A stretch of 64,000 nt of DNA from Thermoanaerobaculia bacterium (GTDB lineage Bacteria > Acidobacteriota > Thermoanaerobaculia > Gp7-AA8). A model generated the notes under the pieces. That model did not search any database. It had not been told where the DNA came from and saw only the letters and a program-made list of their open reading frames with translations. The DNA lies in the NCBI GenBank assembly GCA_035627015.1, contig DASPMO010000039.1:11470-75469 (forward strand), in the 5' to 3' direction. Both the position numbers and the translations under genes were made by a program. Positions 1-47,068 of the stretch are shown here, piece after piece; the stretch's first letter is position 1, and each line of letters begins with the position of its first letter.

Positions 1-1
1 C

Positions 2-358
2 GCCCCCATCAGCGGCATCGTCGACGTGCTGGCCGCCCGCGCGGGGGAGTTCGTCGAGGCCGGCCAGCCGGTGGTCACGCTCATCGATCCCGACGACCTC
101 TGGGTGCGCGCCGACGTCGAGGAAACGTACATCGACCGCGTGCGCATCGGCGACAAGCGCACCGTGCGACTCCCCTCGGGCGAGGAGCGCCTGGGCACCG
201 TCTTCTACCGCGGCGTGAACGCGGCCTTCGCCACGCAGCGCGACGTCAGCCGCACCAAGCGCGACATCAAGACCTTCGAGATCCGCCTGCGCGTCGACAA
301 CGCCGACCGCCGGCTGGCCGTCGGGATGACCGCGTACGTGCTGCTCCCGGTGCAATGA
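2..358 (+). CDS. HlyD-family efflux membrane-fusion protein, C-terminal part (5'-truncated by window)
   Basis: Open frame from window edge; GEFVEAGQPVVTL..DDLWVRADVEE..RVRIG..LAVGMTA pattern; stop overlaps ATG of next gene (ATGA). Confidence 0.85.
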   Translation, partial: APISGIVDVLAARAGEFVEAGQPVVTLIDPDDLWVRADVEETYIDRVRIGDKRTVRLPSGEERLGTVFYRGVNAAFATQRDVSRTKRDIKTFEIRLRVDNADRRLAVGMTAYVLLPVQ

Positions 359-1344
359 ACGCCATCGAGGTGCGGAGCATCGTCAAGCGGTTCGGGCAAT
401 TCACTGCCGTCAACGGCGTGAGCTTCGACGTGGCGGCGGGCGAGTTCTTCGGCCTCCTCGGCCCCAACGGCGCGGGGAAGTCGACGCTGATCCGCATCCT
501 CACCACCCTCCTCCCCCCCACCGGGGGGAGCGCGAAGGTCGGCGGCTTCGACATCGTCACCGAGTCGCACGCCGTGCGCGGCGCCATCGGCGTCATCCCG
601 CAGGCCATGACCAGTGACCTCGACCTCAGCGTCGAGGAGAACCTGATCATCTTCTCCAAGCTGTACGGCGTGCCGCGCGCCAGGCGCACGCGCCTCATCC
701 ACGAGCTGCTGGAGGCGGTCGACCTGCTGCAGTGGGCCGGCAAGCCGGTCAAGTTCCTCTCCGGCGGCATGCGCCGGCGCGTGGAGATCGCCCGCGGCCT
801 CGTCTCCGAGCCGCGCGTCCTCTTCCTGGACGAGCCGACCACCGGGCTCGATCCGGCCTCGCGCGTGGCCGTGTGGGAGATGCTGCGGCGCATCAAGTCG
901 GAGCGCGACCTGACCATCCTCCTGACCACGCACTACATGGACGAGGCGGACCAGCTCTGCGACCGCATCGCCATCGTCGACCACGGCGAGCTGAAGGCGC
1001 TCGACTCGCCGCTGAAGCTCAAGGCTTCGGTGCCGGGGAAGAACGTCATCGAGGTGAGCTTCGCCACGCCGCCGCAGACGTGGGCGCAGACGCTGCGCGC
1101 GCTGCCGAATGTCGACGACGTGGAAGGCGACGACGGCGTGTTCCGGGTCCGCTCGCAGGACGGACCGGGGACGACCATGCGCATCATGGAGGCGGCCGGA
1201 CGCGCGGGGGTTCCGGTGCTGTCGCTGGCCGTGCACAGCACCTCGCTCGACGATGTGTTCATGCACTGCACCGGCCGCGCCCTGCGCGACGAGCTGCAGA
1301 AACCGAGCGTGATGGAGAGCCCGTTCCTGGTGCGGAGAGCCTGA
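355..1344 (+). CDS. ABC-2 type exporter ATP-binding subunit (DrrA-like)
   Basis: Walker A GPNGAGKST, signature LSGGMRRR, Walker B LFLDEPT, H-loop TTHYM. Confidence 0.95.
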   Translation: MNAIEVRSIVKRFGQFTAVNGVSFDVAAGEFFGLLGPNGAGKSTLIRILTTLLPPTGGSAKVGGFDIVTESHAVRGAIGVIPQAMTSDLDLSVEENLIIFSKLYGVPRARRTRLIHELLEAVDLLQWAGKPVKFLSGGMRRRVEIARGLVSEPRVLFLDEPTTGLDPASRVAVWEMLRRIKSERDLTILLTTHYMDEADQLCDRIAIVDHGELKALDSPLKLKASVPGKNVIEVSFATPPQTWAQTLRALPNVDDVEGDDGVFRVRSQDGPGTTMRIMEAAGRAGVPVLSLAVHSTSLDDVFMHCTGRALRDELQKPSVMESPFLVRRA

Positions 1345-1345
1345 G

Positions 1346-2458
1346 ATGCATCGGACCTGGGCCATCATCGAACGCGAGCTGCGCCGCTTCCGGCGCAATC
1401 CGACGATGATCGTCCTGTCGATGCTGCTGCCGGTCATCCAGCTCTGCATCCTCGGCCACGCCATCGGCGGCAACGTCAAGCATCTCAAGGTCGGCATCGT
1501 CGACCAGGATCACGGCCTGCCGGCGGTGAGGCTCCGCGAGCTGGCCGGCGCGGTGACCTCCGGCGCCCGGACGTTCGACACGATCGAATACTCCGATTCC
1601 GGCCGGGCCCTGGAGGACCTCCGCGACGGGCGGCTGCACGCGGTGCTGATCATCCCCCCCGATTTCTCGCGCCGCGTGCACCAGGGCAACCAGCCGCGCA
1701 TCGCACTGGTCGAGGACAACACCGACAACTTCGTCTCGGCCGCGCTGGTGGCGCAGATGAACGGTCTGCTGGCCGCGTTCAACACTCCCGCGGCGCCGCC
1801 GCGCGTCGTCGACGAGGCCACGCTGCAGGTGGTCGAGGTCTATCCCTATATCCCCTACGTGCAGTACCTGCTGCCCGGCTCGATCGTGATGTCGATCTTC
1901 ACCATGGTCATGATCGGCGGCGGCATCAACTTCGTCGACGACAAGGCGCACGGGCTGCACGAGGGCTACCTGGTCACGCCGATCACGAAGCTGGAACTGA
2001 TCGCCGGCTTCAACATCGCCGGCACGCTGAAGGCCGTCATTGCCGGCACGGCGCTGATCCTGGTGGGGACGGTCATCGCCGGCATCCCCAACGCCCTCGA
2101 GCCGGTGCGGCTGCTGAAGCTCGGCGTGGTGGTGGTCATCACCGCCTTCGCCCTCATCAGCCTGATGTTCCTGCTGATGGTGCGCATGTCGAACCCGATG
2201 GTGCCGCGGGCGATGTTCGGGGTGCTGAGCACCGTGCTCTATTTCCCCAGCGGCGCGGTCTATCCGCAGGAGGGCTTTCCGGCCTGGCTGCGCGCGATCG
2301 CGATCGTCGACCCGTTCACGTACGCCGTGCACGCGCTCCGCAGCCTGCTGCTCAAGGACAGCGGCCTGGCCGCCATCAGCGGCGACCTGCTGTTCCTGCT
2401 CGCCTTCTCGGCCATCGCCATGACCGCGGCGACCCTGCTGTTCCGGCGGACGCTTTGA
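1346..2458 (+). CDS. ABC-2 type exporter permease
   Basis: N-terminal TM helix, extracytoplasmic loop, five C-terminal TM helices, YFPSGAVYP and [11 protein letters not shown] motifs; directly follows ATPase. Confidence 0.92.
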
Positions 2459-2546
2459 GGAGTCCGGCTTGTCCGCTCCTGCGAAGGGCAGTACCATCCT
2501 TCCTGCCGTCCAACAGGATCTCCGTCGGAAAATCGTGAGCAGCCGC

Positions 2547-12445
<9,899 letters not shown>

Positions 12446-12473
<28 letters not shown>

Positions 12474-15765: not shown

Positions 15766-15782
15766 GGCGGGCCAGGCCGCGG

Positions 15783-17455: not shown

Positions 17456-17472
17456 GACAATCCCCTTCCCCT

Positions 17473-29617: not shown

Positions 29618-29618
29618 C

Positions 29619-30434: not shown

Positions 30435-30469
30435 GAGGTGGATTCGTAGTATACGCGGTCGACGGGCGC

Positions 30470-31234: not shown

Positions 31235-31238
31235 CCGC

Positions 31239-31799
31239 TCAGTAGCGGATGCCGTTGATCTCGGGCGTGCGGTTGTCGAAACACGCCGAGGCGTACTTGC
31301 CGCGGCTGCGCACGTAATGAAGCGTCACCTGGCGATGGAACTGCCCGGGGAACTCCTCGCGCCAGTGCGTGACGTCGCACCCGAGGTAGAGGACTGCCTG
31401 TCCGGGACGCAGATAGACTTCGGCGGTGCCGGTGAGCGGATGACCGAAGTAGATCGGCCAGGGGTGGTCGCCCTCCAGATGGACGCTCACGCTGATCTCC
31501 CCCGACGGCCGGTCGCAGTGCGGTGCGAGCCGCTCGCCGTGCGTGTACGAGCGCGCATAGCAGAACGTGGGGAGCAGCGACGTCCCGGCCCGTTCGGAGA
31601 CCTGCGGCAGTTTCTCGACGAGCAGTTCGACCACCGGAAGGAAGTTGTAGACCGCCGGCGAGCTGGGGCACTGCCCATCGGTGAAGAGCGGGACGGAATC
31701 GAAATAGGTGCACAGCTCGCGAGTCACCCGCTGCACGCGCTCGGGCGGGAGAAAGTCGTCCAGAATCATCACCCGTTTCTTCTGGAGCTCGGGATTCAT
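31239..31799 (-). CDS. 2OG-Fe(II) oxygenase
   Basis: YARSY..GERLAPHCDRP (HxD)...EISVSVHL...THWRE (His)...LHYV. Confidence 0.8.
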   Translation of the reverse strand: MNPELQKKRVMILDDFLPPERVQRVTRELCTYFDSVPLFTDGQCPSSPAVYNFLPVVELLVEKLPQVSERAGTSLLPTFCYARSYTHGERLAPHCDRPSGEISVSVHLEGDHPWPIYFGHPLTGTAEVYLRPGQAVLYLGCDVTHWREEFPGQFHRQVTLHYVRSRGKYASACFDNRTPEINGIRY

Positions 31800-31838
31800 G
31801 CCTGCCCTCCATCTGTCATTATTCCACACGCGGAATCC

Positions 31839-33209: not shown

Positions 33210-33245
33210 ACGCGGTTTATCATCGGGCCGGAACTCCTGACTTCT

Positions 33246-34085: not shown

Positions 34086-34093
34086 CCACGAAC

Positions 34094-37000
34094 ATGACCA
34101 CGATGGCCATCGCGCATCCGAATCGAGGGCTGCCCCTGTCACGGCAGCGGTCGGGCGTCTTCTCCCCGCGCCGCGAGCGCACAGCCATCCACATGACCGC
34201 GACGCCGCCGCAGCTCGCGGCGGCCGTGGCTGTGGTGCTCTTCCGCTATCACGGCCACGCCCCGGTCCCGGTCGGCCTCGGAACGTCCGCTCCCCAGCTG
34301 GTCGAGGTGGAGATCGATCCCTCCGCGACCATCGGCGCGCTGCGCGCGCGCATGGCCGGCGCCTTCGAAGCCTTGCGCGGAGCCGCGCCGGCGCAGGAAG
34401 GAAACCGCAATCCGGAATTCGATGTGAGCGTGCTCGCGTCGGAGCCCGCGGGAGACTGGCGCGAGGACGTGGTCCTCTACCCGCTCGAGGAGCGCGTGGA
34501 AGCGCTGTGGCGCGCGCGCCTGCTCGACGTGAAGATGGTCGAGCGCTTCCTGACGCACGTCCGCGCCGTGCTCGCGGCGGATGACGGGCAGCCGGCCGAC
34601 GGCATCGACATCGTTTCCGGCGACGAGAAGGAGTTCCTGCGACAGTTCGAAGTCGGACCGCCGGCCGAGGCGATGCCGCCCGTGCACGCCGCCTTCGTGG
34701 CGCAGGCGCGGCGCACGCCGGAGCAGCCGGCCCTGCAGATCGGCGCGGTCACGATCTCCTACGCGGAGATGGAGCGGCGGTCGGCGGTCATCGCCGGCGC
34801 CCTCACCTCGCGCGGGGTGGCCGCCGGCGAGGCGGTGGCGCTCTGCGTCTCGGCGGCCGAGGGGGTCACGGCGCTGGTGGGTATCCTTCGCGCGGGCGCC
34901 GCGGCCGTACCGCTCGACGGCACGCTCCCGCCGGCGCGTCTCCGGTCGCACGTCGAGCAGGCGAACGTGCAGTGGGCGGTCGTCGACGAGCGCCACCGCC
35001 CTCTCGTGCCGGTCGAGCAGGTGGTCACGCTCGACGCTCTCGACTGGAACGCCGAGGCCGGCCTCATCGACCCGCCGGTGACGGACGAGTCGCCCGCCTA
35101 CATTCTTTATACCTCCGGCTCGACCGGGACGCCGAAAGGTATCCGCATGCCGCACCGGGGGCTGAGCAACGTCACCAGCTGGCAGATGGCCCGCAGCGCG
35201 CCCGCGCCGCGCACGCTGCACCGCACCTCGCTCGCCTTCGACGTCTCGATGCAGGAGATCTTCTCCACGTTGTGCGCGGGCGGCTGTCTCGTGGTCGCCG
35301 ACGACGAGGTCCGCGGCGATCCTTCCCGGCTGCCCGATTTCATCGCCGAGCACCGCATCGAGCGTGCGTTCGTGCCGCCGGTGTCGCTGTACCAGATCGC
35401 GGCCGCGCTCGATGCGCGTCCGCAGCCGCTGCCGTCGCTGCGCGAGGTCTACGTCGCCGGCGAGGCGCTGAAGCTCGAGCCGGCGGTGGTGCGGATGTTC
35501 CGGAGCGTCGACGCGATCCTGGAGAACCACTACGGTCCGACCGAGACGCACGTCGCCACGACGTACCGCCTCGAAGAGTCGCCGCTGCGCTGGAGCACGC
35601 GCCCCCCGATCGGGCGTCCCGTTCCCGGCCTCGAGGTGCGCATCCTCGACGGACGCGCCAGGCGCGCCCCCCTCGGTATTGCCGGCGAGATCATCGTCCG
35701 CGGCCGACAGGTCGCGGACGGCTATCTCCTCGGCGTTCCGTTCATCGCGGAGGACGGCACGCCCGCCTACGCCACCGGCGACCTGGGACGCTGGACCGCC
35801 ACGGGCGATCTCGAGTTCCTCGGCCGCAAAGACCGCCAGGTGAAAGTGCGCGGGTATCGCATCGAGCCGGGCGAGATCGAGCTCGCGCTGCAGGCGCAGC
35901 CGGGCGTCCGCGCCGCCGTCGCCGCGGCGCTCGACGACGGCGGCTCGACGCGCCTCGTCGCCTGGATCGTGCCCGACACCATGTTCCCCGGCGTGGCCGC
36001 CATCCGCAAACGGCTGCTGGACGTCCTGCCCGAGTACATGGTCCCGGCGCTGAGCGGCTTCGCGGTCATCGATCGGTTGCCGCTGACGCGGACAGGGAAA
36101 GTCGATCTCTCCGCGCTCAAGCCGCCCGGACAGGGCGAGACCGATCCGGCCCTCCACTACGCTCCCTCGCGGAACGACGTGGAGGCGGCCGTCGCGGAGA
36201 TCTGGCGCCGCGAGCTGGGGCTCGAGCGCGTCGGCATTCACGACGACTTCGTGGAGATCGGCGGCCATTCGCTGGTCGCCATCCGCATCGTGTCGCAACT
36301 GAACGAGCGCTTCGGCGTCAACCTCCCCCTGCGCCTGCTGCTGCGCGGCGGAACCGTGGCCACGGTGGCCAGCCGTCTCGTCGACAACAGCGCGGCGCAA
36401 CCGGAGAACGGGGCGCTCGTGCGCTGCCCGCTGCCCGACGGCAAGATCGTCATCGCACCGTCCGCGGGCGAGGCGCAGTATCTCTGGCAGGACGTCTTCG
36501 CGCTCGACAGCTACGGCGCGCCGGTCGTGTACGACCGCGACGCGGTCGTCGTCGACGTCGGCGCGCACGTCGGCCTCTTCTCGCTGTACGCCCTCGCCGC
36601 CGCGCCGGAGGGACGCGTCGTGGCCATCGAGCCGGTGCCGGTGCTGGTCGAGGCGCTCAAGCGGAACACCGAAAGCCACGGCAGCCGCATCGCCTATTAC
36701 TCCACTGCCGTCGGGGACCACGACGCGAGCGCGTCGATGACGTACTACCCGAAGCTGTCGGGGATGAGCTCCCTGCGCGCCAGTCCGGCGGCCGACGCCT
36801 CGCTGCTGCGCCGCATCATGCACAATCTCCTGGAGCGGCGGCCCGAGGCCGATACGCTCCTCGGCGAGCTGGACGAGCTCGTCGCCGAGCGGCTCGAGGC
36901 GCAGACGTTCGAGTGCACCGTGCGCCGGCTGGAGAGCATCCTGGACGAGGCCGCGCCGGAGCGGATCGACGTCCTCAAGATCGACGTGCAGCGCTACGAA

Positions 37001-37189
37001 GAGCCGGTGCTCCACGGCGTGGGCAACGCCTGGGACCGCGTCCGGCAGGTGGTCGTGGAAGTCCACGACGAGGACGGCGCGTTCGATCGCATCGACGGAT
37101 TCCTGCGCCGGAAGGGCTTCTCGACGTCGGCCAAGGATCTGCCGATCCACGCCGGGACGCCCGTGCGCTTCCTGGTCGGAACCAAGTGA
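34094..37189 (+). CDS. NRPS-like protein: degenerate C fragment - A (Pro-like) - T - FkbM methyltransferase
   Basis: YTSGSTGTPKG, FDVSMQEI, HYGPTETHV (by-eye pocket DVQFYAHVAK), FVEIGGHSL, VDVGAHVGLFS...IEPVP, IDVLKIDVQ. Confidence 0.9.
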   Translation: MTTMAIAHPNRGLPLSRQRSGVFSPRRERTAIHMTATPPQLAAAVAVVLFRYHGHAPVPVGLGTSAPQLVEVEIDPSATIGALRARMAGAFEALRGAAPAQEGNRNPEFDVSVLASEPAGDWREDVVLYPLEERVEALWRARLLDVKMVERFLTHVRAVLAADDGQPADGIDIVSGDEKEFLRQFEVGPPAEAMPPVHAAFVAQARRTPEQPALQIGAVTISYAEMERRSAVIAGALTSRGVAAGEAVALCVSAAEGVTALVGILRAGAAAVPLDGTLPPARLRSHVEQANVQWAVVDERHRPLVPVEQVVTLDALDWNAEAGLIDPPVTDESPAYILYTSGSTGTPKGIRMPHRGLSNVTSWQMARSAPAPRTLHRTSLAFDVSMQEIFSTLCAGGCLVVADDEVRGDPSRLPDFIAEHRIERAFVPPVSLYQIAAALDARPQPLPSLREVYVAGEALKLEPAVVRMFRSVDAILENHYGPTETHVATTYRLEESPLRWSTRPPIGRPVPGLEVRILDGRARRAPLGIAGEIIVRGRQVADGYLLGVPFIAEDGTPAYATGDLGRWTATGDLEFLGRKDRQVKVRGYRIEPGEIELALQAQPGVRAAVAAALDDGGSTRLVAWIVPDTMFPGVAAIRKRLLDVLPEYMVPALSGFAVIDRLPLTRTGKVDLSALKPPGQGETDPALHYAPSRNDVEAAVAEIWRRELGLERVGIHDDFVEIGGHSLVAIRIVSQLNERFGVNLPLRLLLRGGTVATVASRLVDNSAAQPENGALVRCPLPDGKIVIAPSAGEAQYLWQDVFALDSYGAPVVYDRDAVVVDVGAHVGLFSLYALAAAPEGRVVAIEPVPVLVEALKRNTESHGSRIAYYSTAVGDHDASASMTYYPKLSGMSSLRASPAADASLLRRIMHNLLERRPEADTLLGELDELVAERLEAQTFECTVRRLESILDEAAPERIDVLKIDVQRYEEPVLHGVGNAWDRVRQVVVEVHDEDGAFDRIDGFLRRKGFSTSAKDLPIHAGTPVRFLVGTK

Positions 37190-38511
37190 ACACGAGCTCC
37201 GCCGCCGCCCTGGGCCGCCTGGCTGATTCGCTCCCGCGCTGCGACGTGATGAATCTCGGCTATGCGCTGCTGGTGGAAGGGCCGTTGACCGCCGCGGCCA
37301 TGCAGCGTGCCGTCAGCGAGGTCCTGGCCGCGGATCCACTGCTCGCCGGCCCGTGGCTGTGGCGTGACGGCGCCGCCGCACGCGAGGACTTTGCCTTCCT
37401 GGCCGCCCGGCATCTCGCGACGCCGCTCGATCCCGAGGCCCCGTTCAGCGCCGCGTTGTGGTCCGGCGGACCGGACAGCCACCTGTTCCTGCTGGCCATC
37501 CACCATCTCGTCGCCGACGGCGTGGTGCTCGACCGGCTGGCCGCCGACCTCACGCGGCGACTGCAGGGGAAAGAGCTGCCGCCGGTCGAGTTCGCACCGC
37601 AACGGGCGCTCTCCGCGCCCGCGCCGTATACGGCGCCGCGGCTGCCCCTCGCGCCGGCTCCCCCCAGCGTGCGGGCGAGCTGCCGCGCGACCACGCTTCC
37701 GGCCGAGCTGGCGGAGCAGTTCCGCGGCACGATGCGCGGCTGGCGCACCACCCCGTTCGCGGGGGCGATCGCCTGCGTCGTGGCCGCGGTCGCAGGATGG
37801 ACCGGCCAGACCGAAGTCGGCGTCACCATCCAGGTCGCCGGCCGCAACTCGAACGCCGCCCTGCGCGCACCGGGCCCGTGGTACGACCACGCCAACCTCA
37901 CCTTCCCCGTTACGCCGGGCGAGCCGTTGCGCGCGCTCCTGCTCGACGTCGGCAAACGGGTCGTGACGAGCCTCACCACGGAGGGCTTGTGGGCCGCCGC
38001 GCGCCACGAGGAGCCGTGTCCCGAGCTGCTCGTGGTCTACGACCGCTTTCCGCTGTCGAGCATGGCCATCCCCGGCTGCCGCGTCACGCCGGTGGCGGTG
38101 CAGCGGCAGCCGGAGCGGGCGGACGGTCCGCGCGAGTACCTCGTGGCCACGGAAGCGGACATCGTCGTGTTCTTCCGCGAACAGGCGGGGACGCTCGGCA
38201 TGTCGCTGTTCACCAAGACGGCGCGCGTTCCCGAGCAGACCGCGGCGCTGCTGTTCGATTCGATTCTCGACACGCTGCACGTGCTGAGCGCGGACGATCA
38301 GCAACCGGTCGAGCGCCTCGACTTCCCGCCCGACGGCGCGACCTCGCCGGCGCCGGTGGCCTGGCCCGAGCCTGCCTTGTGCGAGGCGCCGCTGGTGGAC
38401 GCGGTGTCGCCCGTGTTCCGCGTCCGCGACGACACGCTACGCGCATTCGCGCGCGATGCCGAACGAACACTGCACGAATGGGGGGTGCCGCCATGGCAGC
38501 GAGCGTCATGA
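37186..38511 (+). CDS. Stand-alone condensation-domain protein (GTG start overlapping upstream stop)
   Basis: MNLGYALLVEGPL, LLLAIHHLVADG (HHxxxDG), EVGVTIQVAGR. Confidence 0.78.
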   Translation: MNTSSAAALGRLADSLPRCDVMNLGYALLVEGPLTAAAMQRAVSEVLAADPLLAGPWLWRDGAAAREDFAFLAARHLATPLDPEAPFSAALWSGGPDSHLFLLAIHHLVADGVVLDRLAADLTRRLQGKELPPVEFAPQRALSAPAPYTAPRLPLAPAPPSVRASCRATTLPAELAEQFRGTMRGWRTTPFAGAIACVVAAVAGWTGQTEVGVTIQVAGRNSNAALRAPGPWYDHANLTFPVTPGEPLRALLLDVGKRVVTSLTTEGLWAAARHEEPCPELLVVYDRFPLSSMAIPGCRVTPVAVQRQPERADGPREYLVATEADIVVFFREQAGTLGMSLFTKTARVPEQTAALLFDSILDTLHVLSADDQQPVERLDFPPDGATSPAPVAWPEPALCEAPLVDAVSPVFRVRDDTLRAFARDAERTLHEWGVPPWQRAS

Positions 38512-39383
38512 GCGCCGGGGAGCGCGCGCTGCTGCCAACGCCGGAGCAGGTCGCGGAGTACGAGGCACACGGCTGGTGGATCTCCCCGCCGTGCATCGGC
38601 GAGGAGGCGCTGGAGGAGCTGCGGTTCGGCATCGAGCGCTATTACTCCGGCGAGCGCGATTGGCGCCTGCCCATCGTTTCCGCCTCGGACTGGACGCCCG
38701 CCGACGGCGACGTCGTGCGGCAGAACGACTTCGCCTCGCTGCAACTGGAGGAGTTCCGCGCCTTTCTGCTGCGCCAGCCCGTCATCGCGGCCATGGCCGC
38801 GCGGCTCGCGCGCAGCCCGTCGGTCCGCCTGTTCCACGACCAGATCGTCTACAAACCCGCCGGCCGTTCGCTGCAGGAGACGGGCGTCGGCTGGCACACG
38901 GACCGTTCGTACTGGAGGACCTGCACGTCGGCGCGCATGCTCACCGCCTGGATTCCGCTGGCCGATGTCGACGAGCGCTCCGGCACGATGACGGTCATCG
39001 ACGGGAGCCATCTCTGGCCGGACGCCGAGAAGCTGCGCCGCTTCCACGAGCGCGACGTCGACGCCGTGCAGCGCGAGATCACCCCCTCCGGTGCCTGGAT
39101 CGAGGTACCGTACCGCATGCGCGCCGGACAGGTCGCGTTCCACCACTGCAGGACGATCCACGGCAGCCGGCAGAACATGTCGGACGTGCCGCGCATCGCC
39201 TGGGCGGTCCATTTCCAGGACGAAGACAACCGGTGGCAGCCCGCGACCAACCCCGACGGCACGATGACGCCGCACATGAATGACCTGCTGTGCCGGAAGA
39301 CCCCGGACGGCACACCCGACTACCGCGACCCCGACGTCTGTCCCGAATTGTGGCGAGAGGAGCCGTATGAACCGTTCATCTGA
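38508..39383 (+). CDS. PhyH-family Fe(II)/2OG dioxygenase (copy 2)
   Basis: LFHDQIVYKP, WHTDRSYW, LTAWIPLAD, IDGSH, FHHCRTIHGS; ATGA overlap. Confidence 0.9.
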   Translation: MSAGERALLPTPEQVAEYEAHGWWISPPCIGEEALEELRFGIERYYSGERDWRLPIVSASDWTPADGDVVRQNDFASLQLEEFRAFLLRQPVIAAMAARLARSPSVRLFHDQIVYKPAGRSLQETGVGWHTDRSYWRTCTSARMLTAWIPLADVDERSGTMTVIDGSHLWPDAEKLRRFHERDVDAVQREITPSGAWIEVPYRMRAGQVAFHHCRTIHGSRQNMSDVPRIAWAVHFQDEDNRWQPATNPDGTMTPHMNDLLCRKTPDGTPDYRDPDVCPELWREEPYEPFI

Positions 39384-39594
39384 GGCTGCAGTGGCAGCCC
39401 TCTACACAGCCGTCGCCGAGATCCTGCAGATCGACTCCGCGCGGCCGCAGGACAACTTCATCGAGCTCGGAGGGAACTCGCTGCTCGCGGTCATTCTCGC
39501 CAACCGCATGGAAGACGAGTTCGGGACGCGGCTCGATGTGATGGACATCTTCAATCTCGAGCTCGGCCAGCTCGAGCCTCTGCTCGGTCCATGA
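39367..39594 (+). CDS. Stand-alone peptidyl carrier protein
   Basis: AEILQIDSARPQDNFIELGGNSLLAVILANRMEDEFG...DIF. Confidence 0.88.
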   Translation: MNRSSEAAVAALYTAVAEILQIDSARPQDNFIELGGNSLLAVILANRMEDEFGTRLDVMDIFNLELGQLEPLLGP

Positions 39595-40327
39595 CCATGA
39601 TCGCGAATGCATCCGGCGGGACTTCACGCAGGCGGCGCGCGGCCACGACCGCGACGCGCCATCCCTCTGGAACCGCGGCCACGATCTGCGGGATGGACGG
39701 CAACCGCGGGAAGGGGAACGCCGGATCGTGCGCGAAGCGCACAGGAAGCGCGTCGCCGAGGATGGTGATCAGCGCGCGGCTGCCGGCGGCGGAATGGCCG
39801 CTCAGCTCCGCCACCAGGCGCTCCCAAGCACGCCCGGGCAGGTACTCCAGCAGCCCCTCGGCAATCCACAACGTCGCGCGCTCGGGATCGAATGACGCCC
39901 TGCGCAACCCCTCGGCCAGTCCGCCGGGGAGGCGCGCGTCGATGCGCTCTCCCCTGCCGTCGGCCGGGAGCAGCGTCCGGGCCAGCGCATTGACGGCGGC
40001 CGAGTCGACGGCGATCGCGCGTGCGCCCGGCGGCAGCGGCACGCGCCGGAAGCGCGTGTCGAGTCCCGCGCCGAGGACCACGACTTGGTCGATCCCCGCG
40101 GCCAGCGCGGCCGCGGTCTCCTCGTCCAGTTGCAGCGTCCGCAGCGCCACGATGTCGGCGAAGAGCGGCGACTCCGCGCTGCCCGGCCACGGCGGCAACC
40201 GCGCCGCCGCTTCTTCCGCCGCGGGGTCGGCGAACAACCGGTCGTTCCGCCGCGACTCCGCCGCTCGCCAGGACAGCGTCATGGCCGCGGAGCGCTCGAC
40301 GGGATCGAGATGGGACCAGTCCGGCAT
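39551..40327 (-). CDS. LCM-family (leucine carboxyl methyltransferase-like) SAM-dependent methyltransferase
   Basis: RAAESRRNDRLFADP, LRTLQLDE, QVVVLGAGLDTR, TLWIAEGLLEYL. Confidence 0.85.
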   Translation of the reverse strand: MPDWSHLDPVERSAAMTLSWRAAESRRNDRLFADPAAEEAAARLPPWPGSAESPLFADIVALRTLQLDEETAAALAAGIDQVVVLGAGLDTRFRRVPLPPGARAIAVDSAAVNALARTLLPADGRGERIDARLPGGLAEGLRRASFDPERATLWIAEGLLEYLPGRAWERLVAELSGHSAAGSRALITILGDALPVRFAHDPAFPFPRLPSIPQIVAAVPEGWRVAVVAARRLREVPPDAFAIMVMDRAEARAGRARD

Positions 40328-40363
40328 CAATCGTTCGGAACCGAAGGATACGCGGGTGCGGCC

Positions 40364-42220
40364 ATGATGAACATTCAGCTCGTGGACATTCAGGTGTACG
40401 AACGTCTGACGCCGCTCGCCTCGGGACTGATGGCGGCGGCGGTGCTCGGCGATTCCGCGCGCGCGGCCTCGTGCCGCATCGCCCTGCGGACGTGGAACGT
40501 CGCCGCGAGCGCGGAGACGATCGCCGCCGCGCTGCTCGCGGAGCCCTGCGATCTCGTCGGCTTCAGCACGTACGTCTGGAACGCCGGCCTGGTCCGGCGC
40601 GTGGCCGCGCTGCTCGCCCGCGAGCGGCCGCAGCTGCCGATCCTGCTCGGCGGGCCGCACGTCGTGCACGGCGCGGAGCGCTGGCGCGGCGTCGCCCCGA
40701 ACCTGCTCATCGCCGACGGCGAGGGAGAGCCGATCCTCGTCGACCTCGCCGAGCGCTTCCTCGGCGGCCGGCCGCTGGCCGAGAGTGTGGGCGTGTCCGG
40801 CTTCTGGGAAGGCGCGGCGCTGCCGCCGTCGGGGCACATGCCGGTCGCGGACCTCGAGCAGATCCCCTCGCCGTTCCTCATGGGACTCTTTCCTCCGGGC
40901 GTCTACACGCAGGCCATCCTCGAGACGAACCGCGGCTGCCCCTTCGCCTGCAGCTTCTGTTTCTGGGGCCTCGGGTCCAAACGCGTGCGCAGGTTCTCCG
41001 ACGACCGTACCCGCGCCGAGCTTGAATGGATCTTCCGCGAGAAGATCCTCTCCGTCTTCGTGGCGGACGCGAACTTCGGCATGTACCCCCGCGACATCGA
41101 CATCGCCAACGCGCTGGCCGGCAACCGCCGGCAGCACGGGACGCCGCTGGTCGTGTCGTTCAACACCATGAAGAACCGGCCGGAGACGATGTCCCGCATC
41201 AGCCGGATCGTCGGGGAGGCGGGGCTGGTGGCCACGCAGTCGATGGCCATCCAGTCGATGGATGAAGTCACGCTGCGCGAGAGCGGCCGCGGCACGATCC
41301 GCACCTCCGCCTACACGGCCGCGCTGGACGAGCTCAATCGCGACGGGTTCACGACCTACGTCGAGTTGATCTGGCCCTTGCCGGGAGAGACGGTCCAGTC
41401 GTTCGCGGCGGGGATCGACTCGCTCTGTGCCATCGGCGCGCAGAGCTTCGTCGTCTACCCGTTGCTCGCGCTGCCCAACACCCGGATCACCGAGCAGCGC
41501 GAGGCTCTCGGCCTGACCATCACCCCCAGCGCCGACCAGGGCGCCGGCGACTACATGTACGTCACGGCCACGCGCGAGGTCTCCGCGGAGGAGTATCGCG
41601 AAGGGTTATGGCTGACCCTGGCCGTGAACCTCCTGTACAACACGCGCGTGCTGGCCGGCACGTTCGACGTGCTCCGGCAGCGCGGCATCCGCCACATCGA
41701 CGTGCTCGCGCCGTTCGCGCAATGGGCGAAGGAGCAGGACCTGCCGCTGTTCGCGCGCCACGCCAGCGCGTCCGCCAGCGTCGAGCACGCGTCGTGGGCG
41801 TACTGGGGCTCGATCGCGTTCGAGGCACTGCACGCGGAGCGCGAGCGGTTCGTGGCGATCGTCGAAGAGTTCTGCCGGCAGCAGCCGTGGTGGGACGAAG
41901 AGACGCGCGCCAGCATCGAAGTGGACCGCCTGCTGCTCCCCTACCTCTTCTCCAATACGCGGCTCGCGCCGTGGCACGGCAGCGACATCTCGGTCCAGCC
42001 GGAACAGCGGCGTCTCCACGCGCGCGTTTCCGACCGCGCGCGGAAGCTGCTGCACGCCCGCTGGCACGACCTTCCCGAGACCATCGAGCTGAATCCGTGG
42101 AACGGCCAGATGCCCCATTTTGCGAGTCAGCCGGTCAGCGCCGCGCACGATTACGCGTACGGCCAACTGCAACGCATGGCGCACTTCATTCCGAGACTGG
42201 TGGGCGCGCCCGCACCTTGA
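40364..42220 (+). CDS. Class B (cobalamin-dependent) radical SAM methyltransferase
   Basis: DLVGFSTYVWN, LGGPHV, DGEGE, IPSPFL, ETNRGCPFACSFCFWG, DANFG, ELIWPLPGET. Confidence 0.92.
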   Translation: MMNIQLVDIQVYERLTPLASGLMAAAVLGDSARAASCRIALRTWNVAASAETIAAALLAEPCDLVGFSTYVWNAGLVRRVAALLARERPQLPILLGGPHVVHGAERWRGVAPNLLIADGEGEPILVDLAERFLGGRPLAESVGVSGFWEGAALPPSGHMPVADLEQIPSPFLMGLFPPGVYTQAILETNRGCPFACSFCFWGLGSKRVRRFSDDRTRAELEWIFREKILSVFVADANFGMYPRDIDIANALAGNRRQHGTPLVVSFNTMKNRPETMSRISRIVGEAGLVATQSMAIQSMDEVTLRESGRGTIRTSAYTAALDELNRDGFTTYVELIWPLPGETVQSFAAGIDSLCAIGAQSFVVYPLLALPNTRITEQREALGLTITPSADQGAGDYMYVTATREVSAEEYREGLWLTLAVNLLYNTRVLAGTFDVLRQRGIRHIDVLAPFAQWAKEQDLPLFARHASASASVEHASWAYWGSIAFEALHAERERFVAIVEEFCRQQPWWDEETRASIEVDRLLLPYLFSNTRLAPWHGSDISVQPEQRRLHARVSDRARKLLHARWHDLPETIELNPWNGQMPHFASQPVSAAHDYAYGQLQRMAHFIPRLVGAPAP

Positions 42221-42232
42221 AGTCGCTCCGTT

Positions 42233-43603
42233 TTGATGGCAGTATTCCTTCCTTCGAGGACACGATTGACCGCCCTGAGTACGCCAGCGCGAGTTCCCGA
42301 TAGCGGACGGGCGGCTGAAGAGCCGTTTCCACTGCGCTGGAGCGCGACGCAGACACGGTTGCTGCGCGAGCGCGCGGAAGGATCCGGGCCGGCGCCCCTC
42401 GTGACCGCGATCGAGCTCGACGGACCGGTCGATGCCGCGCGTCTCGACCAGGCTTGGCAGGAGCTCCAGTGGCGGCACCCGTTCCTCCGCGTGCGTCTCG
42501 GCCCCGACGGCCCGTTCGCAGCGCCGGAAGTGCGTCCGCTGCTGCGCGCGAACATTCCGGGGAGCAGCCCGGGCTTCCGCACGGACGCGGCGCAAGTGCT
42601 CGCGGCGGCGGCGCGGCCCCGCGACCTGGCCACGGAAGGTCCGGCGGACGCGGCGTGGATCCGCACCGGCCCCGAGGCGGGACTGCTGATCTGCAGCGTC
42701 GACCATCTCGCCACCGATGGCTGGTCGTTCGGCCTCATGGCGCGGCAGTGGGGCGAGCTCTATCGCACGCCGGGCGCGGGCGCCGTCGTGGACCCGAGCA
42801 GCGTCATCGCCCGATACGACGAGCCTGAGCGCGTTCGCGCCCACGGCATCGCCGTCCGGAACCTTGCCGAGGAGCTCGCGGGCGCACAGCCGTTTCCGCT
42901 GCCTCCATCGCAGAGCGGATGGGCGCTCCTGCACGTCGACCTGCCGCTCGACATCGCCGGCGGTCTCCGCGCCCGCGCCACCCGCGACCGCTCGACGCCG
43001 TTCGCTCTCGCGCTGGCCGCCCTCGGCCGCGCGCTGGCGGCCGAGCATGGGGTGACCGACCTGGTCGTCTCCACGCATGTCGCCAACCGCTCCGTCCCGC
43101 AGAGCGAGCAGGTCGTCTGCGCGCTCTACAACACCGTCCCTCTGCGCATCTCCGCCAGGAGCGGCGACGATCTCGAAGGATGGGTTGCCTCGGCGAAGCA
43201 GGCCTCGCTGCGCGCACTGCAGCGGCAGTCGCTGCCGTTCGCCACGGCGCGGCAGGTGCTGGCCGGGACGCTCCCCTCCGACGCGTTCCTCCGCGTCATG
43301 ATCAACTTCGATCAGCACCCGTTCCTCGGGCTCTCTCTCCCCGGCGTCGAGATCCACGAATCGGCGGCATGGAGCCCGCAGCGGCTCGGGACGGGCCTGA
43401 ACGCCCCCTGGTATTCCACTTCCGACCGGCCGTGGCCGGCCGGCATCACCGTATCGTTCCGCGAGACCTGGGATTGCCTGCAACTCTACATTCATTACGG
43501 AGCGGAGCTGGGCGATCGCGCTGCATTGATGCTGCTGGGCCGGGTGACCGAAGGCCTGGCACTGCTTACAGACTCCCGACAGGAGGAAAACGGCCATGGC
43601 TGA
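42233..43603 (+). CDS. Stand-alone condensation-domain protein (variant DHxxxDG)
   Basis: PLRWSATQ, RHPFLR, CSVDHLATDGWSF, STPFALALAA, STHVANR...LYNTVPLR, QSLPF. Confidence 0.8.
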   Translation: MMAVFLPSRTRLTALSTPARVPDSGRAAEEPFPLRWSATQTRLLRERAEGSGPAPLVTAIELDGPVDAARLDQAWQELQWRHPFLRVRLGPDGPFAAPEVRPLLRANIPGSSPGFRTDAAQVLAAAARPRDLATEGPADAAWIRTGPEAGLLICSVDHLATDGWSFGLMARQWGELYRTPGAGAVVDPSSVIARYDEPERVRAHGIAVRNLAEELAGAQPFPLPPSQSGWALLHVDLPLDIAGGLRARATRDRSTPFALALAALGRALAAEHGVTDLVVSTHVANRSVPQSEQVVCALYNTVPLRISARSGDDLEGWVASAKQASLRALQRQSLPFATARQVLAGTLPSDAFLRVMINFDQHPFLGLSLPGVEIHESAAWSPQRLGTGLNAPWYSTSDRPWPAGITVSFRETWDCLQLYIHYGAELGDRAALMLLGRVTEGLALLTDSRQEENGHG

Positions 43604-44576
43604 CTCGAGAGCTCAAATCATCGCCCAGGCACTGATCCAGATCGCGCAGACCCTGACCCCCGAAGGAGGACAGGACGAGGCCAAGGAGCGCGGTGGTCGC
43701 GGCGGCGGTGCGGCCGCGGCCGCGACGCGCGATCCGGAGAGCGTGGCCTCCCTGATCCGCGCACTCTGCCCCGCCACGTCCACGGCCACGCGCCCGACCG
43801 ACGTCGCGGAGCTGATCCGCGCGCTCTGCCCGGTGGGCGACACCCGCGCCAATCCGACCGCCACCGCGCGCCTGATTCAGGCGCTCTCGCCGGCGGTCGA
43901 GACGGGAGGACGCGAGCGCATGCAGCAGCTCATCGCCGCGCTCTGCCCGATCGAGCCGGGCTCGAACGTCTCGCGATTCGCCGAACAGTTCGCAGCCGGC
44001 GACACCGCGGCGATGGCGGAGGCCGTCCAGAGCGGCGCCGAGGCTGATGCCACCGTTTCCGCCGCAACGCTCACCCCGCAGCAGCGCCTGGCGGCCGACG
44101 TCTTCCGCGTACTCTCGCCGGTCGACCAGCAGCCGCGGACCGACGTCAAAACCGCGGTCGACTTCCTGCGTGCGCTCTGCCCGGCGGACCGTCCGCCGGA
44201 CGAAGTGGCGGGCCTCATCGCCGCGCTCTCGCCGGCCGCCGACAAGACCGCCGGCTCTCCCGACGAGGCGGTCGCGTTCATTCGCGCGCTCTGCCCCGCC
44301 GGGGACGTACCGGCCACCGACGTCGCGCAGATTGTCCGCGCACTCTCCCCCGCCGCCGATCTGGAGGCGAGGCGCACCGACAACGTCGCGCAGCTCGTGC
44401 GGGCGCTCTGTCCCGCGGCACCGACCGAGTGGGGCGGGCTGGTTCGCGCGCTCTCGCCGGCGCACGATCCGGCGACGCGGCCAACCGACGTTGCGGAGCT
44501 CATTCGCCAGCTCTCTCCCGCGATCGGGCCGGTGGAAGTCATCCGCACGCTGTCGCCTGCGGGTCCGGGGCAATGA
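43596..44576 (+). CDS. Unknown protein with 13 tandem [LFIV][IVLF]xxL[C/S]P repeats
   Basis: GGAGG RBS, start overlaps upstream stop; motif LIRALCP/LIAALSP recurs 13 times with variable P/A/T/D-rich linkers; repeat visible at DNA level (gcgctctgcccg / gcgctctcgccg). Confidence 0.85.
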   Translation: MADSRAQIIAQALIQIAQTLTPEGGQDEAKERGGRGGGAAAAATRDPESVASLIRALCPATSTATRPTDVAELIRALCPVGDTRANPTATARLIQALSPAVETGGRERMQQLIAALCPIEPGSNVSRFAEQFAAGDTAAMAEAVQSGAEADATVSAATLTPQQRLAADVFRVLSPVDQQPRTDVKTAVDFLRALCPADRPPDEVAGLIAALSPAADKTAGSPDEAVAFIRALCPAGDVPATDVAQIVRALSPAADLEARRTDNVAQLVRALCPAAPTEWGGLVRALSPAHDPATRPTDVAELIRQLSPAIGPVEVIRTLSPAGPGQ

Positions 44577-44597
44577 CGGGCCGGCGATCACCCGTTC

Positions 44598-46286
44598 ATG
44601 CCGAAAGTCAGTGACTACGTAGCCGATTTCCTGGCCATCAACGGAATTCATCTCGCCTTCGAGCTGTCGGGCGGGATGATTTCCCATTTGCTCGACTCGT
44701 TCGCGGCGCATCCGGACATCCGCGTGATCTCCATGCACCACGAGCAGTCGGCGTCGTTTGCCGCCGAGGCGGTGGGACGGCTGACCGGCCGCCCCGCCGT
44801 CGCCCTCGGGACGTCCGGACCGGGCGCGCTGAACCTCGTCAGCGGCATCGCCAGCTGCTACTACGATTCCGTCCCCGCCCTCTTCATCACCGGCGACGTG
44901 CAGACCTACATGGAAGCGGGACAGAAGCCGCTGCGCCAGTTCGGGCTGCAGGAATGCCCATTCCCCGCCGTCGCCGCGCCGATCGCCAAATCCGCGGTCT
45001 CGGTCAAGCGTGCGGCCGACGTCCCCGCCGCCTTCGAGCAGGCGCTCCTCACGGCCGTCAGCGGCCGTCCCGGCCCGGTGGTCATCGAGCTTCCCTTCGA
45101 CGTGCAGGGACAACCGCTGAATGCGCAGGCGGCGGCGGTGGCGCTGCCTCCCCCGCAGCCTCCCGCCGATGACGCGGTGACGGTGGCCAACGAGATCCTC
45201 GCCTCCGCGCAGCGTCCGCTGATCCTCGCCGGTGGCGGCGTGCGCTCTCCCGCGGCCAGCGACGCGCTGCGGCGCTTCGCCGAGAAGACAGGAGTGCCGC
45301 TGGCGACGTCCATTGCCGCGCTGGACGTCGTGCCGGCCGGTCACCCGCTGCGCGTCGGACTGGTGGGGATGTACGGCACGCGCGCGGGAAACCTGGTCAT
45401 GGCCGAAAGCGACGCCATCCTGGTCGTCGGCAGCCGCCTCGACGCGGGACTGATCGGGGCCGACACGAGCGCGTGGGAGCGTCACAAAACGATCGTGCGC
45501 GTGGACTGCGACGCGGGCGAGCTGTCGGCCCGCCTGCGCAATGCGAAGCAGTTCCACGCCGACGCCGGAGCGTTCCTCGCCGCGGCGCTCGCGAGCGCGC
45601 CGAACGGGGTCCACGCCGAGTGGCGCGCGCGCGTCCAGCAGTTGAAAAGCGAGCACCCCGACACCGCCGAGCATGCGACCGGAGCAGACATCAATCCGAA
45701 CCTGTTCATGCATCAGTTGTCCGCGGGGTCCGGCGACGCCGTCGCCTACGTCGTGGATGCCGGGCAACACACCTGGTGGTCCGCGCAGTCGCTGCAGCTC
45801 ACCGGGTCGCAGCGGTACCTCGGCGCCACGGGCTTGTGGGCCATGGGATCGTCGCTCCCGGCCGCGATCGGCGTCGCCCTGCACACGGGCCGCCCCGTCG
45901 TCGCCATCGCGGGCGACGCCGGCATCCAGCTCAACCTCCAGGAGCTCCACGCCCTCATCCGCTACCAGCTGCCGGTCAAGATCGTGGTGATCAACAACCA
46001 CTGCCACGGCATGGTGCGCCAGTTCCAGGACGAGTTCTTCGACCGCCGGCGCCCGTCGACCGTCTGGGGCTATAGCCCTCCCGACTTCACCGCCGTCGCC
46101 GCCGCCTACGGAATCCGCTCCGCGGCCGTCGACCGCCAGGACGACGTCCCGGCCGCGGTCGCGCGGATGTGGGCCGATCCCGCCGCCCCCTTCCTGCTGA
46201 ACGCGACGATTCCGCTCGACATCAACGTCTCCCCCTACGTCCCCCTCGGGCGCCCACTCAGCGGGATGGTTCCGCCGCGCCCCTGA
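44598..46286 (+). CDS. ThDP-dependent enzyme, acetolactate synthase large-subunit-like
   Basis: MHHEQSASFAAEA, TSGPGALN, GRPGPVVIELP, PLILAGGG, GDAG...VINN ThDP motif, GMVRQFQ. Confidence 0.92.
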   Translation: MPKVSDYVADFLAINGIHLAFELSGGMISHLLDSFAAHPDIRVISMHHEQSASFAAEAVGRLTGRPAVALGTSGPGALNLVSGIASCYYDSVPALFITGDVQTYMEAGQKPLRQFGLQECPFPAVAAPIAKSAVSVKRAADVPAAFEQALLTAVSGRPGPVVIELPFDVQGQPLNAQAAAVALPPPQPPADDAVTVANEILASAQRPLILAGGGVRSPAASDALRRFAEKTGVPLATSIAALDVVPAGHPLRVGLVGMYGTRAGNLVMAESDAILVVGSRLDAGLIGADTSAWERHKTIVRVDCDAGELSARLRNAKQFHADAGAFLAAALASAPNGVHAEWRARVQQLKSEHPDTAEHATGADINPNLFMHQLSAGSGDAVAYVVDAGQHTWWSAQSLQLTGSQRYLGATGLWAMGSSLPAAIGVALHTGRPVVAIAGDAGIQLNLQELHALIRYQLPVKIVVINNHCHGMVRQFQDEFFDRRRPSTVWGYSPPDFTAVAAAYGIRSAAVDRQDDVPAAVARMWADPAAPFLLNATIPLDINVSPYVPLGRPLSGMVPPRP

Positions 46287-46351
46287 AGCCGCGCGTCCTG
46301 CTTGCGACAGGAAACGCACGACGGCAGAATACGCGCTCGAAAGGACCCATC

Positions 46352-47068
46352 GTGGCAAACAGCAAGCTTGCGGCACCCCAGCTCGTCCTGCACAGCCGGA
46401 TGATCTATACCAGTTGGATCCCCGAGGATCCGGACGCCTGCGCGCGCCTCCTTCCGCCCGCCCTGCGGCCGGCGGCCAACCGGGCCGTCTACATGAATCA
46501 GTACGTAGTGGACCGGGCGGAGCAGACCACCGGCTTCGGGGCGTACTCGCTCACCTACCTGGGACTCGACCTGGCGGACCTGTTCGCGCCCGACGGGGTG
46601 ACCCCGGCGCGCTTCTTCACGCACTACTTCAACTCGTCGGAGACCGTGCGGGAGTACGTGACGGAGCGCGGCGTCCCGGCGTCCCCCGGCTCGACCGTGC
46701 TGGAGGTGGAAGGCGGAATCGCCACGGCGACCACCAGCGTGGACGGCACCCCCATCATCCGCACCCGGGCCCGGGTGGGCGAGACGGCCGACCTCGTGCT
46801 GGCCGGCCACCTCCGCTACGTGACCCGGGTCGGCAACCGGCTGATCGCCGGGAACTACCCCTACATCGGCGAGCTGGCAGGCACGTTCGAGGTGCAGTCC
46901 ATCGAGTTCCTCGCCCCCGACCACCCGGTATACGCCCTCCGCCCGGCCAGCCCGCTCCAGGTGATCGCCGGCTCGTCCTTCTACGCCCCGCGCGACTCGT
47001 TCGTGTACCCCGGCGGCGAGGAGGACCTCGGTCCGGCAGAGGGCGGTGGCCAGGGGCACCGGCCGTAG
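46352..47068 (+). CDS. Acetoacetate decarboxylase (ADC) superfamily-like protein (GTG start inferred)
   Basis: Size, D..ACARLLPPALRP N-terminus, FGAYS..YLG, beta-rich pattern; canonical Schiff-base Lys not confirmed. Confidence 0.55.
   Translation: MANSKLAAPQLVLHSRMIYTSWIPEDPDACARLLPPALRPAANRAVYMNQYVVDRAEQTTGFGAYSLTYLGLDLADLFAPDGVTPARFFTHYFNSSETVREYVTERGVPASPGSTVLEVEGGIATATTSVDGTPIIRTRARVGETADLVLAGHLRYVTRVGNRLIAGNYPYIGELAGTFEVQSIEFLAPDHPVYALRPASPLQVIAGSSFYAPRDSFVYPGGEEDLGPAEGGGQGHRP

Follow-up and report, generated by a model that had tools for sequence, protein, structure and literature searches.

A 47-kb natural-product gene island from an uncultured soil bacterium is probably a mosaic of three separable gene sets

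The pyoluteorin, prodiginine and clorobiocin pathways contain pyrrole-carrier cassettes (Plt, Red, Pig and CloN) that combine a proline-type adenylation enzyme, a prolyl-carrier dehydrogenase and a free carrier, and CloN6 is the pyrrole C-methylase of this group. In TrpB enzymes evolved in the laboratory, removal of the catalytic glutamate redirects the enzyme to non-indole nucleophiles. Fatty acyl-AMP ligases (FAALs) and acyl carrier proteins (ACPs) form starter modules, and in cystobactamid biosynthesis CysS works with the methyltransferase CysF, while the stand-alone module CysH works with CysJ, CysQ and CysB (PMC7966384, PMC12846815). Enzymes that resemble parts of each of these systems lie within 47 kb of a 64,000-nucleotide stretch of DNA assigned to a Thermoanaerobaculia bacterium (contig DASPMO010000039.1), hereafter the window. 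Our analysis confirms this region as a natural-product gene island from an uncultured soil bacterium, and we propose that it is probably a mosaic of three gene sets, which can be separated on evolutionary grounds and probably also by function.

We refer to these sets as Units 1, 2 and 3. Unit 1 (1-19409) comprises an exporter, a trimodular nonribosomal peptide synthetase (NRPS) and a proline/TrpB-like cassette. Unit 2 (20106-26614, minus strand) encodes an ACP, a ketosynthase (KS), two radical S-adenosylmethionine (SAM) proteins, a FAAL and a thioesterase. Unit 3 (approximately 29619-47068) contains a proline-like adenylation-thiolation-methyltransferase, tailoring enzymes, a CysS homologue, a thiamine diphosphate (ThDP) enzyme and a repeat protein. 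An earlier note on this DNA had counted at least three sub-pathways, and the three units are indeed found apart from one another in related loci (numbered here with the prefix L). In L011 and L012, the proteins of the Unit 1 cassette are 69-89% identical to those of the window and the NRPS gene is convergent to the cassette; beyond the B3/4-domain gene lie either a methionyl-tRNA synthetase gene or genes for a thiolase and a Zn-alcohol dehydrogenase. Because these housekeeping genes directly follow the B3/4-domain gene, Unit 1 appears to be self-contained there. The core of Unit 2 occurs in other phyla, and no Unit 1 or Unit 3 genes were found in its loci from Tistrella, a JGI contig and a Gemmatimonadota metagenome-assembled genome (MAG). 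Unit 3 occurs in five contexts: the window, L171-L173, L003 (where insertion sequence elements follow), L004 (where its gene order is permuted) and L006 with L176-L178. The earlier note had held that sub-operons that never co-occur in other genomes are independent units. Loci were seen with Unit 2 and neither of the others, and with Unit 1 and no other unit as its neighbour; the sole co-localisation, which qualifies that independence, is that of Unit 3 with the Unit 1 cassette in L171-L173.

In L171-L173, where amino acid identity to the window is 65-87%, Unit 3 leads directly into the B3/4-domain gene and the remaining Unit 1 cassette genes, all on one strand, and Unit 2, the protease, the aldehyde dehydrogenase and the 238-amino-acid protein described below are all absent from the junction. 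The layout of the window can be derived from this arrangement if Unit 3 is inverted and Unit 2 is inserted with its neighbouring genes, and Unit 2 looks like an insertion. That Units 1 and 3 are still neighbours after such a rearrangement hints at a coupling between them, and we consider the chances to be about even that Unit 3 supplies Unit 1 in the present lineage. A soil metatranscriptome contains fragments that match exactly the exporter, NRPS and cassette of Unit 1, the protease, the aldehyde dehydrogenase and Unit 3, with the greatest depth on the repeat protein; no fragments were found across 20004-26673 (about 6.7 kb, spanning Unit 2) in these data, which are thin and could contain DNA as well. 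In soil, Units 1 and 3 are apparently transcribed, and the organism appears to be active.

The physical continuity of the region is well documented. A 61.5-kb ENA contig from a soil metagenome and Logan contigs carry identical genes, and a 21.8-kb Logan contig from a single run matches positions 17000-32000 with zero differences. An assembly chimera is ruled out by these independent ENA and 21.8-kb Logan contigs, which have the same layout. Soil metagenomes of about 15 studies contain fragments of the region, and its closest named relatives are MAGs labelled as Acidobacteriota, Thermoanaerobaculia and Longimicrobium. On the left, the island begins approximately 690 bp upstream of the window start, with unrelated genes beyond (L175); on the right, the last biosynthetic gene stops at 47068. 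The window is about 70% GC, and genes were called by third-position GC and codon bias and annotated with Pfam and NCBIfam. A scan of 12000-31900 for promoters and terminators returned counts at background level.

This annotation bore out nearly every item that the earlier note had listed within the 47 kb: the NRPS, the proline ligase with its dehydrogenase and carrier, the KS, ACP and FAAL, the free condensation domains, the GMC oxidoreductase, the aldehyde dehydrogenase, the ThDP enzyme and the exporter. The three stand-alone carriers are present at 17135-17455, 26312-26614 and 39367-39594, each with a serine motif, as are three methyltransferases (a class I enzyme at 29619-30434, an FkbM domain within 34094-37189 and an LCM-type enzyme at 39551-40327). 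Two counts need qualification. The note had claimed four cobalamin (B12) radical SAM proteins; four radical SAM proteins were found, each with a CxxxCxxC motif and all resembling B12-type families, but the Pfam B12-binding domain scores above its cut-off in only two of them (22132-23511 and 40364-42220), is below threshold in a third (17473-18765) and is undetected in the fourth (23708-25063). Likewise, the claim of three 2-oxoglutarate (2OG) oxygenases is secure for two PhyH proteins, whereas the third candidate (31239-31799) has an HxD...H motif and non-significant matches to PHD2. In the searches made, no unit matched a characterised cluster, and all results agree with the earlier note, which did not recognise the combination as a characterised one; among the distinctive enzymes of the region, the closest relative that has been solved is CysS.

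Unit 1 appears to be a complete NRPS pathway, with substrates and a product that can be predicted from its genes. Its exporter (2-2458, plus strand) consists, by Pfam, of an HlyD-type membrane-fusion protein, a DrrA-like ABC ATPase (355-1344, plus strand) and an ABC-2 permease (1346-2458, plus strand). Only the 3′ part of the membrane-fusion gene lies inside the window; the gene starts about 690 bp earlier and is present in full in L175. The NRPS (2547-12473, plus strand; 3308 amino acids) has, by Pfam, three condensation-adenylation-thiolation (C-A-T) modules and a terminal thioesterase domain. The C domains carry the motifs HHTLCDG, HHSIADG and HHSIADG, module identities are 63-79%, and the three A domains are nearly identical in specificity code, DTWTVAGV(C/G)K, with the same codes in L012. 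We take this code to be closest to those for phenylalanine, with a smaller residue at position 322. The NRPS would join the amino acid made by the adjoining cassette three times, giving a tripeptide that the membrane-fusion/ABC system would export.

The cassette itself is encoded on the minus strand. An adenylation enzyme with a C-terminal PF00756 esterase domain (GFSMG; 12446-14647, Pfam) has its best stand-alone match among solved structures in the L-proline-carrier ligase 6O6E/7THN (PltF-type, 226 bits), and its code is DLFYIAWVVK here and DLFYLALVVK in L171, both of which presumably resemble the pyrrole-type proline code. The fusion is kept in L011-L014, in L171 and in alphaproteobacterial MAGs. 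Beside it lies a putative prolyl-carrier-protein dehydrogenase of the acyl-CoA dehydrogenase fold (14644-15765), with its start taken from the ENA contig; its best NCBIfam matches are ProlPCPDhRedW (289 bits, cut-off 650) and PigA (261 bits, cut-off 500). A TrpB2-family enzyme dependent on pyridoxal phosphate (PLP) follows (15783-17138), which scores 540 bits against a cut-off of 366 for NCBIfam PRK12391 and matches the solved TrpB2 structure 6HUL with E 8e-106. The PLP lysine, Lys107 (AGSHKLN), and the GAGQWG loop are retained, and the catalytic glutamate is replaced by Gly129 (VTGTGAGQWG versus VTETGAGQWG in 6HUL). Glycine stands in this position in 12 of the 12 cassette-linked TrpB-like homologues. 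The set continues with a stand-alone peptidyl carrier protein, PCP1 (17135-17455; PF00550, GLNSL), and the radical SAM protein that we number 1 (17473-18765; CPFRCQYC), identified by its match to the TsrM structure (E 3e-28) and by NCBIfam (ladder_B12, 206 bits; BzaD, 129 bits; Trp 2-C-methyltransferase family, 105 bits). Its closest relatives, TsrM and BzaD, methylate aromatic sp2 carbons. A B3/4-domain protein (18738-19409, Pfam) is the final gene of the unit, as it is in L011 and L012.

By analogy with the PltF/PltE/PltL, RedM/RedW/RedO and CloN4/N3/N5 families, we hypothesize that the A-esterase fusion loads proline onto PCP1 and that the dehydrogenase oxidises prolyl-PCP1 towards pyrrole-2-carboxyl-S-PCP1; this would be a four-electron oxidation, unlike the two-electron one to pyrroline by AnaB of the anatoxin pathway. 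Radical SAM protein 1 would then methylate an aromatic carbon. The TrpB2 enzyme does not have the glutamate that activates indole, and we propose that it instead uses the pyrrole unit, to which it would couple a serine-derived aminoacrylate. The esterase domain would finally release the heteroaromatic amino acid. The core of the cassette (a carrier-like open reading frame (ORF), the TrpB-like enzyme, the dehydrogenase and the A-esterase fusion) is kept at 35-55% identity in alphaproteobacterial MAGs. Four loci, L015, L036, L038 and L045, carry a ketopantoate-reductase-like gene, a PaaK-like ligase, the carrier-like ORF, TrpB with the glycine, the dehydrogenase, the A-esterase and a phosphopantetheinyl transferase. 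No NRPS was found beside the minimal alphaproteobacterial cassette within the 22-kb loci read, which points to a small free product.

Other roles were considered for the enzymes of this cassette. The TrpB-like enzyme is unlikely to be a plain tryptophan supplier working with a TsrM-type tryptophan methylase, since the glycine is fixed and the linkage to the proline cassette is invariant even in loci with no NRPS in the part read. A prodiginine-like bipyrrole pathway to 4-methoxy-2,2′-bipyrrole-5-carbaldehyde (MBC) is ruled out: the KS of the window is of the FabF-like type (360 bits, with a score of only 59 bits for PigJ), and the fold of the PLP enzyme is that of TrpB and not the alpha-oxoamine-synthase fold of a PigH counterpart. 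Literature searches on acidobacterial pyrrole clusters, on TrpB with pyrrole and on the A-domain code found nothing relevant.

Unit 2 is encoded entirely on the minus strand and was annotated with Pfam and NCBIfam. Its genes are those for the ACP (26312-26614), the FabF-like KS (25082-26305), radical SAM protein 3 (23708-25063), the B12 radical SAM protein 2 (22132-23511), the FAAL (20543-22135) and a 4HBT (hot-dog) thioesterase (20106-20546). The NCBIfam matches of radical SAM protein 3 are all to B12 radical SAM families, and homologues 70-79% identical to it, from Tistrella, Bradyrhizobium, Arenibaculum, Telmatospirillum and Gemmatimonadota, carry the B12 domain. The contexts that we compared were L008, L009, L010 and L092. 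The triad of radical SAM protein, B12 radical SAM protein and FAAL precedes a type I polyketide synthase (PKS) of about 2500 amino acids in Tistrella and in the JGI contig, and in the Gemmatimonadota MAG it sits after an ACP. These arrangements suggest that Unit 2 is a portable cassette which feeds type I PKSs in other phyla. The FAAL would load an acid onto the ACP, the two radical SAM proteins would modify it, the KS would extend it once and the thioesterase would release the product. In the literature searched, no function has been described for the triad. An isonitrile-lipopeptide pathway was considered for the combination of FAAL, ACP and hot-dog thioesterase and set aside, as there is no TauD-type oxygenase in the Pfam results.

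The junctions of Unit 2 were also inspected. A metagenome scan with the FAAL found only two close loci, both too short to reach the junctions, and no repeats above chance flank the unit. A gap of 696 bp separates Unit 2 from the Unit 1 cassette. Within it, a 70-amino-acid ORF with a Cys-rich C-terminus (VVCSSTTQQQCEIKGGTWNPTTCSCRALCSGCQIS) lies at 19811-20023 on the plus strand; it is called as a gene in the ENA contig and is not conserved across any of the fetched loci. One contig of run X4, which belongs to another soil study, extends from the ACP end at 26646 through 876 unmatched bases into a 62-nt match at 19716-19777, which implies a related strain with another position or orientation of Unit 2 relative to the spacer.

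Between Units 2 and 3 lies a gene for a secreted S1 serine protease of the alpha-lytic/streptogrisin-like type (26812-28074, plus strand), with a signal peptide, the motif GDSGSPV and a lower GC content; it is called as a 420-amino-acid gene in L174. This is a non-biosynthetic gene that divides the two units. The aldehyde dehydrogenase follows (28169-29617, plus strand, Pfam). It had no tblastn match in the read parts of the Unit 3 loci L003, L004 and L173, and its membership of Unit 3 is uncertain.

Unit 3 begins with a block (29619-33209) that is kept with it in L003, L004 and L173. The block contains the class I methyltransferase (29619-30434, minus strand, Pfam), a 254-amino-acid protein conserved with the unit (30470-31234, plus strand), the 186-amino-acid candidate small 2OG oxygenase (31239-31799, minus strand) and the GMC oxidoreductase (31839-33209, plus strand, Pfam). 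In the 186-amino-acid protein the HxD...H motif is invariant; a profile search of solved structures returned the prolyl hydroxylase PHD2 at a non-significant E of about 0.4, and a structure predicted from the single sequence was unusable (pLDDT 34). The plus strand then carries the first PhyH oxygenase (33246-34085, Pfam), the A-T-FkbM methyltransferase (34094-37189, Pfam), a free C-like protein with the motif HHLVADG (37186-38511, Pfam), the second PhyH oxygenase (38508-39383, Pfam) and the stand-alone carrier PCP2 (39367-39594, Pfam). The code of the A-T-FkbM protein is proline-like (DVQFYAHV-K here and DVQFYAQVVK in L003).

The LCM-type methyltransferase (39551-40327, minus strand) is divergent from the CysS-like B12 radical SAM protein (40364-42220, plus strand; PF02310, 44 bits; CPFACSFC), and this divergent pair is present in every Unit 3 locus. 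The CysS-like protein aligns with CysS (PDB 9N1B) over residues 4-610 with E 4.8e-92. Against the KedN5 family NF033712 it scores 269.6 bits and does not pass the cut-off of 700, so by NCBIfam score it is a distant relative and not a member of that family. Downstream on the plus strand are a second free C-like protein with the motif DHLATDG (42266-43603, Pfam), the repeat protein (43596-44576), the acetolactate-synthase-like ThDP enzyme (44598-46286, Pfam) and a 238-amino-acid protein (46352-47068) that is the last gene of the unit. The core shared by all loci is the divergent pair, a C-like protein, the repeat protein and the ThDP enzyme. Pfam found no thioesterase, reductase or other release domain in Unit 3. 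We propose that the A-T-methyltransferase tethers a proline-like acid, which would then be hydroxylated and O-methylated, and that the CysS homologue lengthens a methyl group on a heteroatom, like CysS in the cystobactamid pathway; by this analogy, Unit 3 may carry out iterative methylation on a carrier-bound substrate, in keeping with its context of a conserved LCM neighbour and carriers, and the two C-like proteins may pass the product on. In the more distant relatives L006 (9122-11191), L176 (12744-14423), L177 and L178, the genes that come after Unit 3 encode either one or two small DUF1843 proteins together with a radical SAM-SPASM protein, a pair that resembles those of peptides made by the ribosome and modified after translation (RiPPs), and the Unit 3 of L176 and L177 carries an additional P450.

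The repeat protein has 326 amino acids and, by repeat alignment, about 14 units of [LIV]xxAL(C/S)P. The proline is invariant in most units, and nearly all units have either Cys or Ser just before it, with swaps between these two from one homologue to another. Homologues are scarce: 5.8 billion proteins contained 5, and 1.84 billion contained 3 strong representatives. The family hardly occurs outside Unit 3-type clusters, and the gene adjoins that of a C-like protein in every Unit 3 locus read. A structural model (pLDDT 58) shows a string of 11-residue helices, each terminating at (C/S)P, and Foldseek on this model found only generic helical repeats, none at E <= 0.001. The protein could be a scaffold or a substrate.

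The alternative to a mosaic that has to be taken most seriously is that the 47 kb encode a single pathway, in which Unit 2 would provide a methyl-branched acyl-ACP starter and Unit 3 a modified proline for one heavily C-methylated and oxidised lipopeptide. The earlier note had left the choice between such a product and two to three juxtaposed clusters. A single pathway would accommodate the contiguity of the genes, which are separated by short gaps within a unit, the C domain at the start of the NRPS, the FAAL, ACP and KS as typical parts for lipo-initiation, and the lack of a release domain in Unit 3. However, Unit 2 is missing both where Unit 3 meets the Unit 1 cassette in L171-L173 and beside Unit 1 in L011 and L012, its core is 70-79% identical to that of PKS loci in other phyla, and it drew zero metatranscriptome fragments; within the window, the secreted protease gene interrupts the region and the 696-bp gap sets Unit 2 off from the Unit 1 cassette. 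We therefore regard a single lipopeptide as unlikely and favour juxtaposition, with the proviso that Units 1 and 3 are not wholly independent. The mosaic reading must still contend with several observations. All three units are contiguous in the window, and the NRPS starts with a C domain that might take an acyl-ACP made by Unit 2. Unit 3, having no thioesterase or reductase and abutting the Unit 1 cassette in L171-L173, may not be independent. The MAG taxonomy of the relatives is conflicting (Acidobacteriota versus Longimicrobium), and the metatranscriptome is sparse and possibly contains DNA. Most of the related contigs are short and the long ones (L003 and L012) were partly read, which makes the evidence for the absence of a unit elsewhere on those contigs indirect, and the substrate assignments all derive from sequence.

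A second alternative concerns Unit 3 alone and departs from the carrier-bound substrate that we prefer: the (C/S)P repeat protein would itself be the substrate or scaffold, with the LCM enzyme methylating its Ser or Cys residues, the CysS homologue extending those methyls and the DHxxxDG C-like protein perhaps acylating, a ribosomal/non-ribosomal hybrid that would need no thioesterase. Such a role would fit the position of the repeat gene beside a C-like gene in every Unit 3 locus read, the invariant proline of most units with the Cys/Ser exchange before it, the near restriction of the family to this cluster type, the maximum of metatranscriptome fragments on this gene and the missing release domain. 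The known substrates of CysS-type iterative methylation bear O- or S-bound methyls, which also counts in its favour. Yet a model made up entirely of short helices also fits a plain helical-repeat scaffold, the alternation of Cys and Ser is consistent with a structural repeat of two helices, no RiPP hallmark such as a leader or a protease was found, and a C-like enzyme acting on protein side chains has no known precedent; on balance, we consider this a long shot. A joint scheme, in which the glutamate-less TrpB2 builds a pyrrole amino acid used three times by the NRPS and the Unit 3 enzymes alkylate or acylate Ser and Cys of the repeat protein, strikes us as improbable. We retain the reading of three gene sets, with Unit 3 acting on a carrier-bound substrate.

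To the right of the island, an 82-nt direct repeat (95% identical) occurs at 47134-47215 and 49557-49638, beginning just beyond the last biosynthetic gene. The repeat is a duplicated 3′ piece of a comM-like Mg-chelatase gene (49459-50973, minus strand), and its two copies flank a 2.4-kb segment of lower GC that carries a HAD hydrolase gene and a TIR-DeoR fusion gene; this segment looks like an insertion scar. Further along, an operon at 51866-58346 (minus strand) encodes two ABC exporters with fused transmembrane domains, a 125-amino-acid protein, a thioredoxin-like protein, an ABC-2 permease, an ABC ATPase and an 80-amino-acid ORF. A DUF4062-NACHT STAND NTPase (59363-62110, plus strand) and a protein matching the PADLOC MzaA model (62094-63269, minus strand; E 1e-30) are possible defence genes (59363-63269).

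The synteny check demonstrates that rare enzymes crowded together can belong to a mosaic of portable units, in which case a product prediction made from a single contig would mislead. Each unit is an uncharacterised recurring building block that is directly testable. The cassette of TrpB2 (Glu to Gly), prolyl dehydrogenase and A-esterase spans Acidobacteriota to Alphaproteobacteria, and Unit 3 carries a protein family seen almost nowhere else.

Set against the systems described at the outset, each unit combines familiar parts with additions of its own. Unit 2 groups a FAAL, an ACP, a FabF-like KS and a hot-dog thioesterase as FAAL-ACP starter modules do, and differs in that two radical SAM proteins, one of them clearly of B12 type, are invariant in the cassette. 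Unit 3 is like the cystobactamid system in pairing a full-length CysS homologue with a SAM methyltransferase, and in having a stand-alone A-T protein that includes a tailoring domain, a hydroxylase acting in trans and possible shuttle proteins. In contrast to that system, the A code is proline-like and not that for asparagine, an LCM-type enzyme is the methyltransferase partner, the position of CysB is taken by C-like proteins, and the ThDP enzyme and the (C/S)P repeat protein have no counterpart. Pfam and NCBIfam returned no p-aminobenzoate NRPS modules, AMDH domain or pentapeptide-repeat resistance protein of the cystobactamid/albicidin type, and the A codes are Phe-like and Pro-like.

The Unit 1 cassette shares with the Plt, Red, Pig and CloN cassettes its proline-type A enzyme, its putative prolyl-carrier dehydrogenase, which resembles acyl-CoA dehydrogenases, and its free carrier, and the B12 radical SAM protein beside it recalls CloN6. 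Unlike those cassettes, it has the A enzyme fused to a PF00756 esterase, an invariant partner in the glutamate-less TrpB2, a B3/4-domain protein, and a dehydrogenase that scores 289 bits against an equivalog cut-off of 650, and it is without the halogenase or the acyl-transfer proteins of those pathways. As a TrpB2, the enzyme scores above the family cut-off and retains both the PLP lysine and the GAGQWG loop, while the glutamate of (E)TGAGQ(H/W)G is glycine in every cassette-linked copy. An engineered tyrosine synthase is among its solved-structure matches. In contrast to the engineered glutamate-less TrpB enzymes, the change seen here arose in nature and goes together with a proline/pyrrole cassette.

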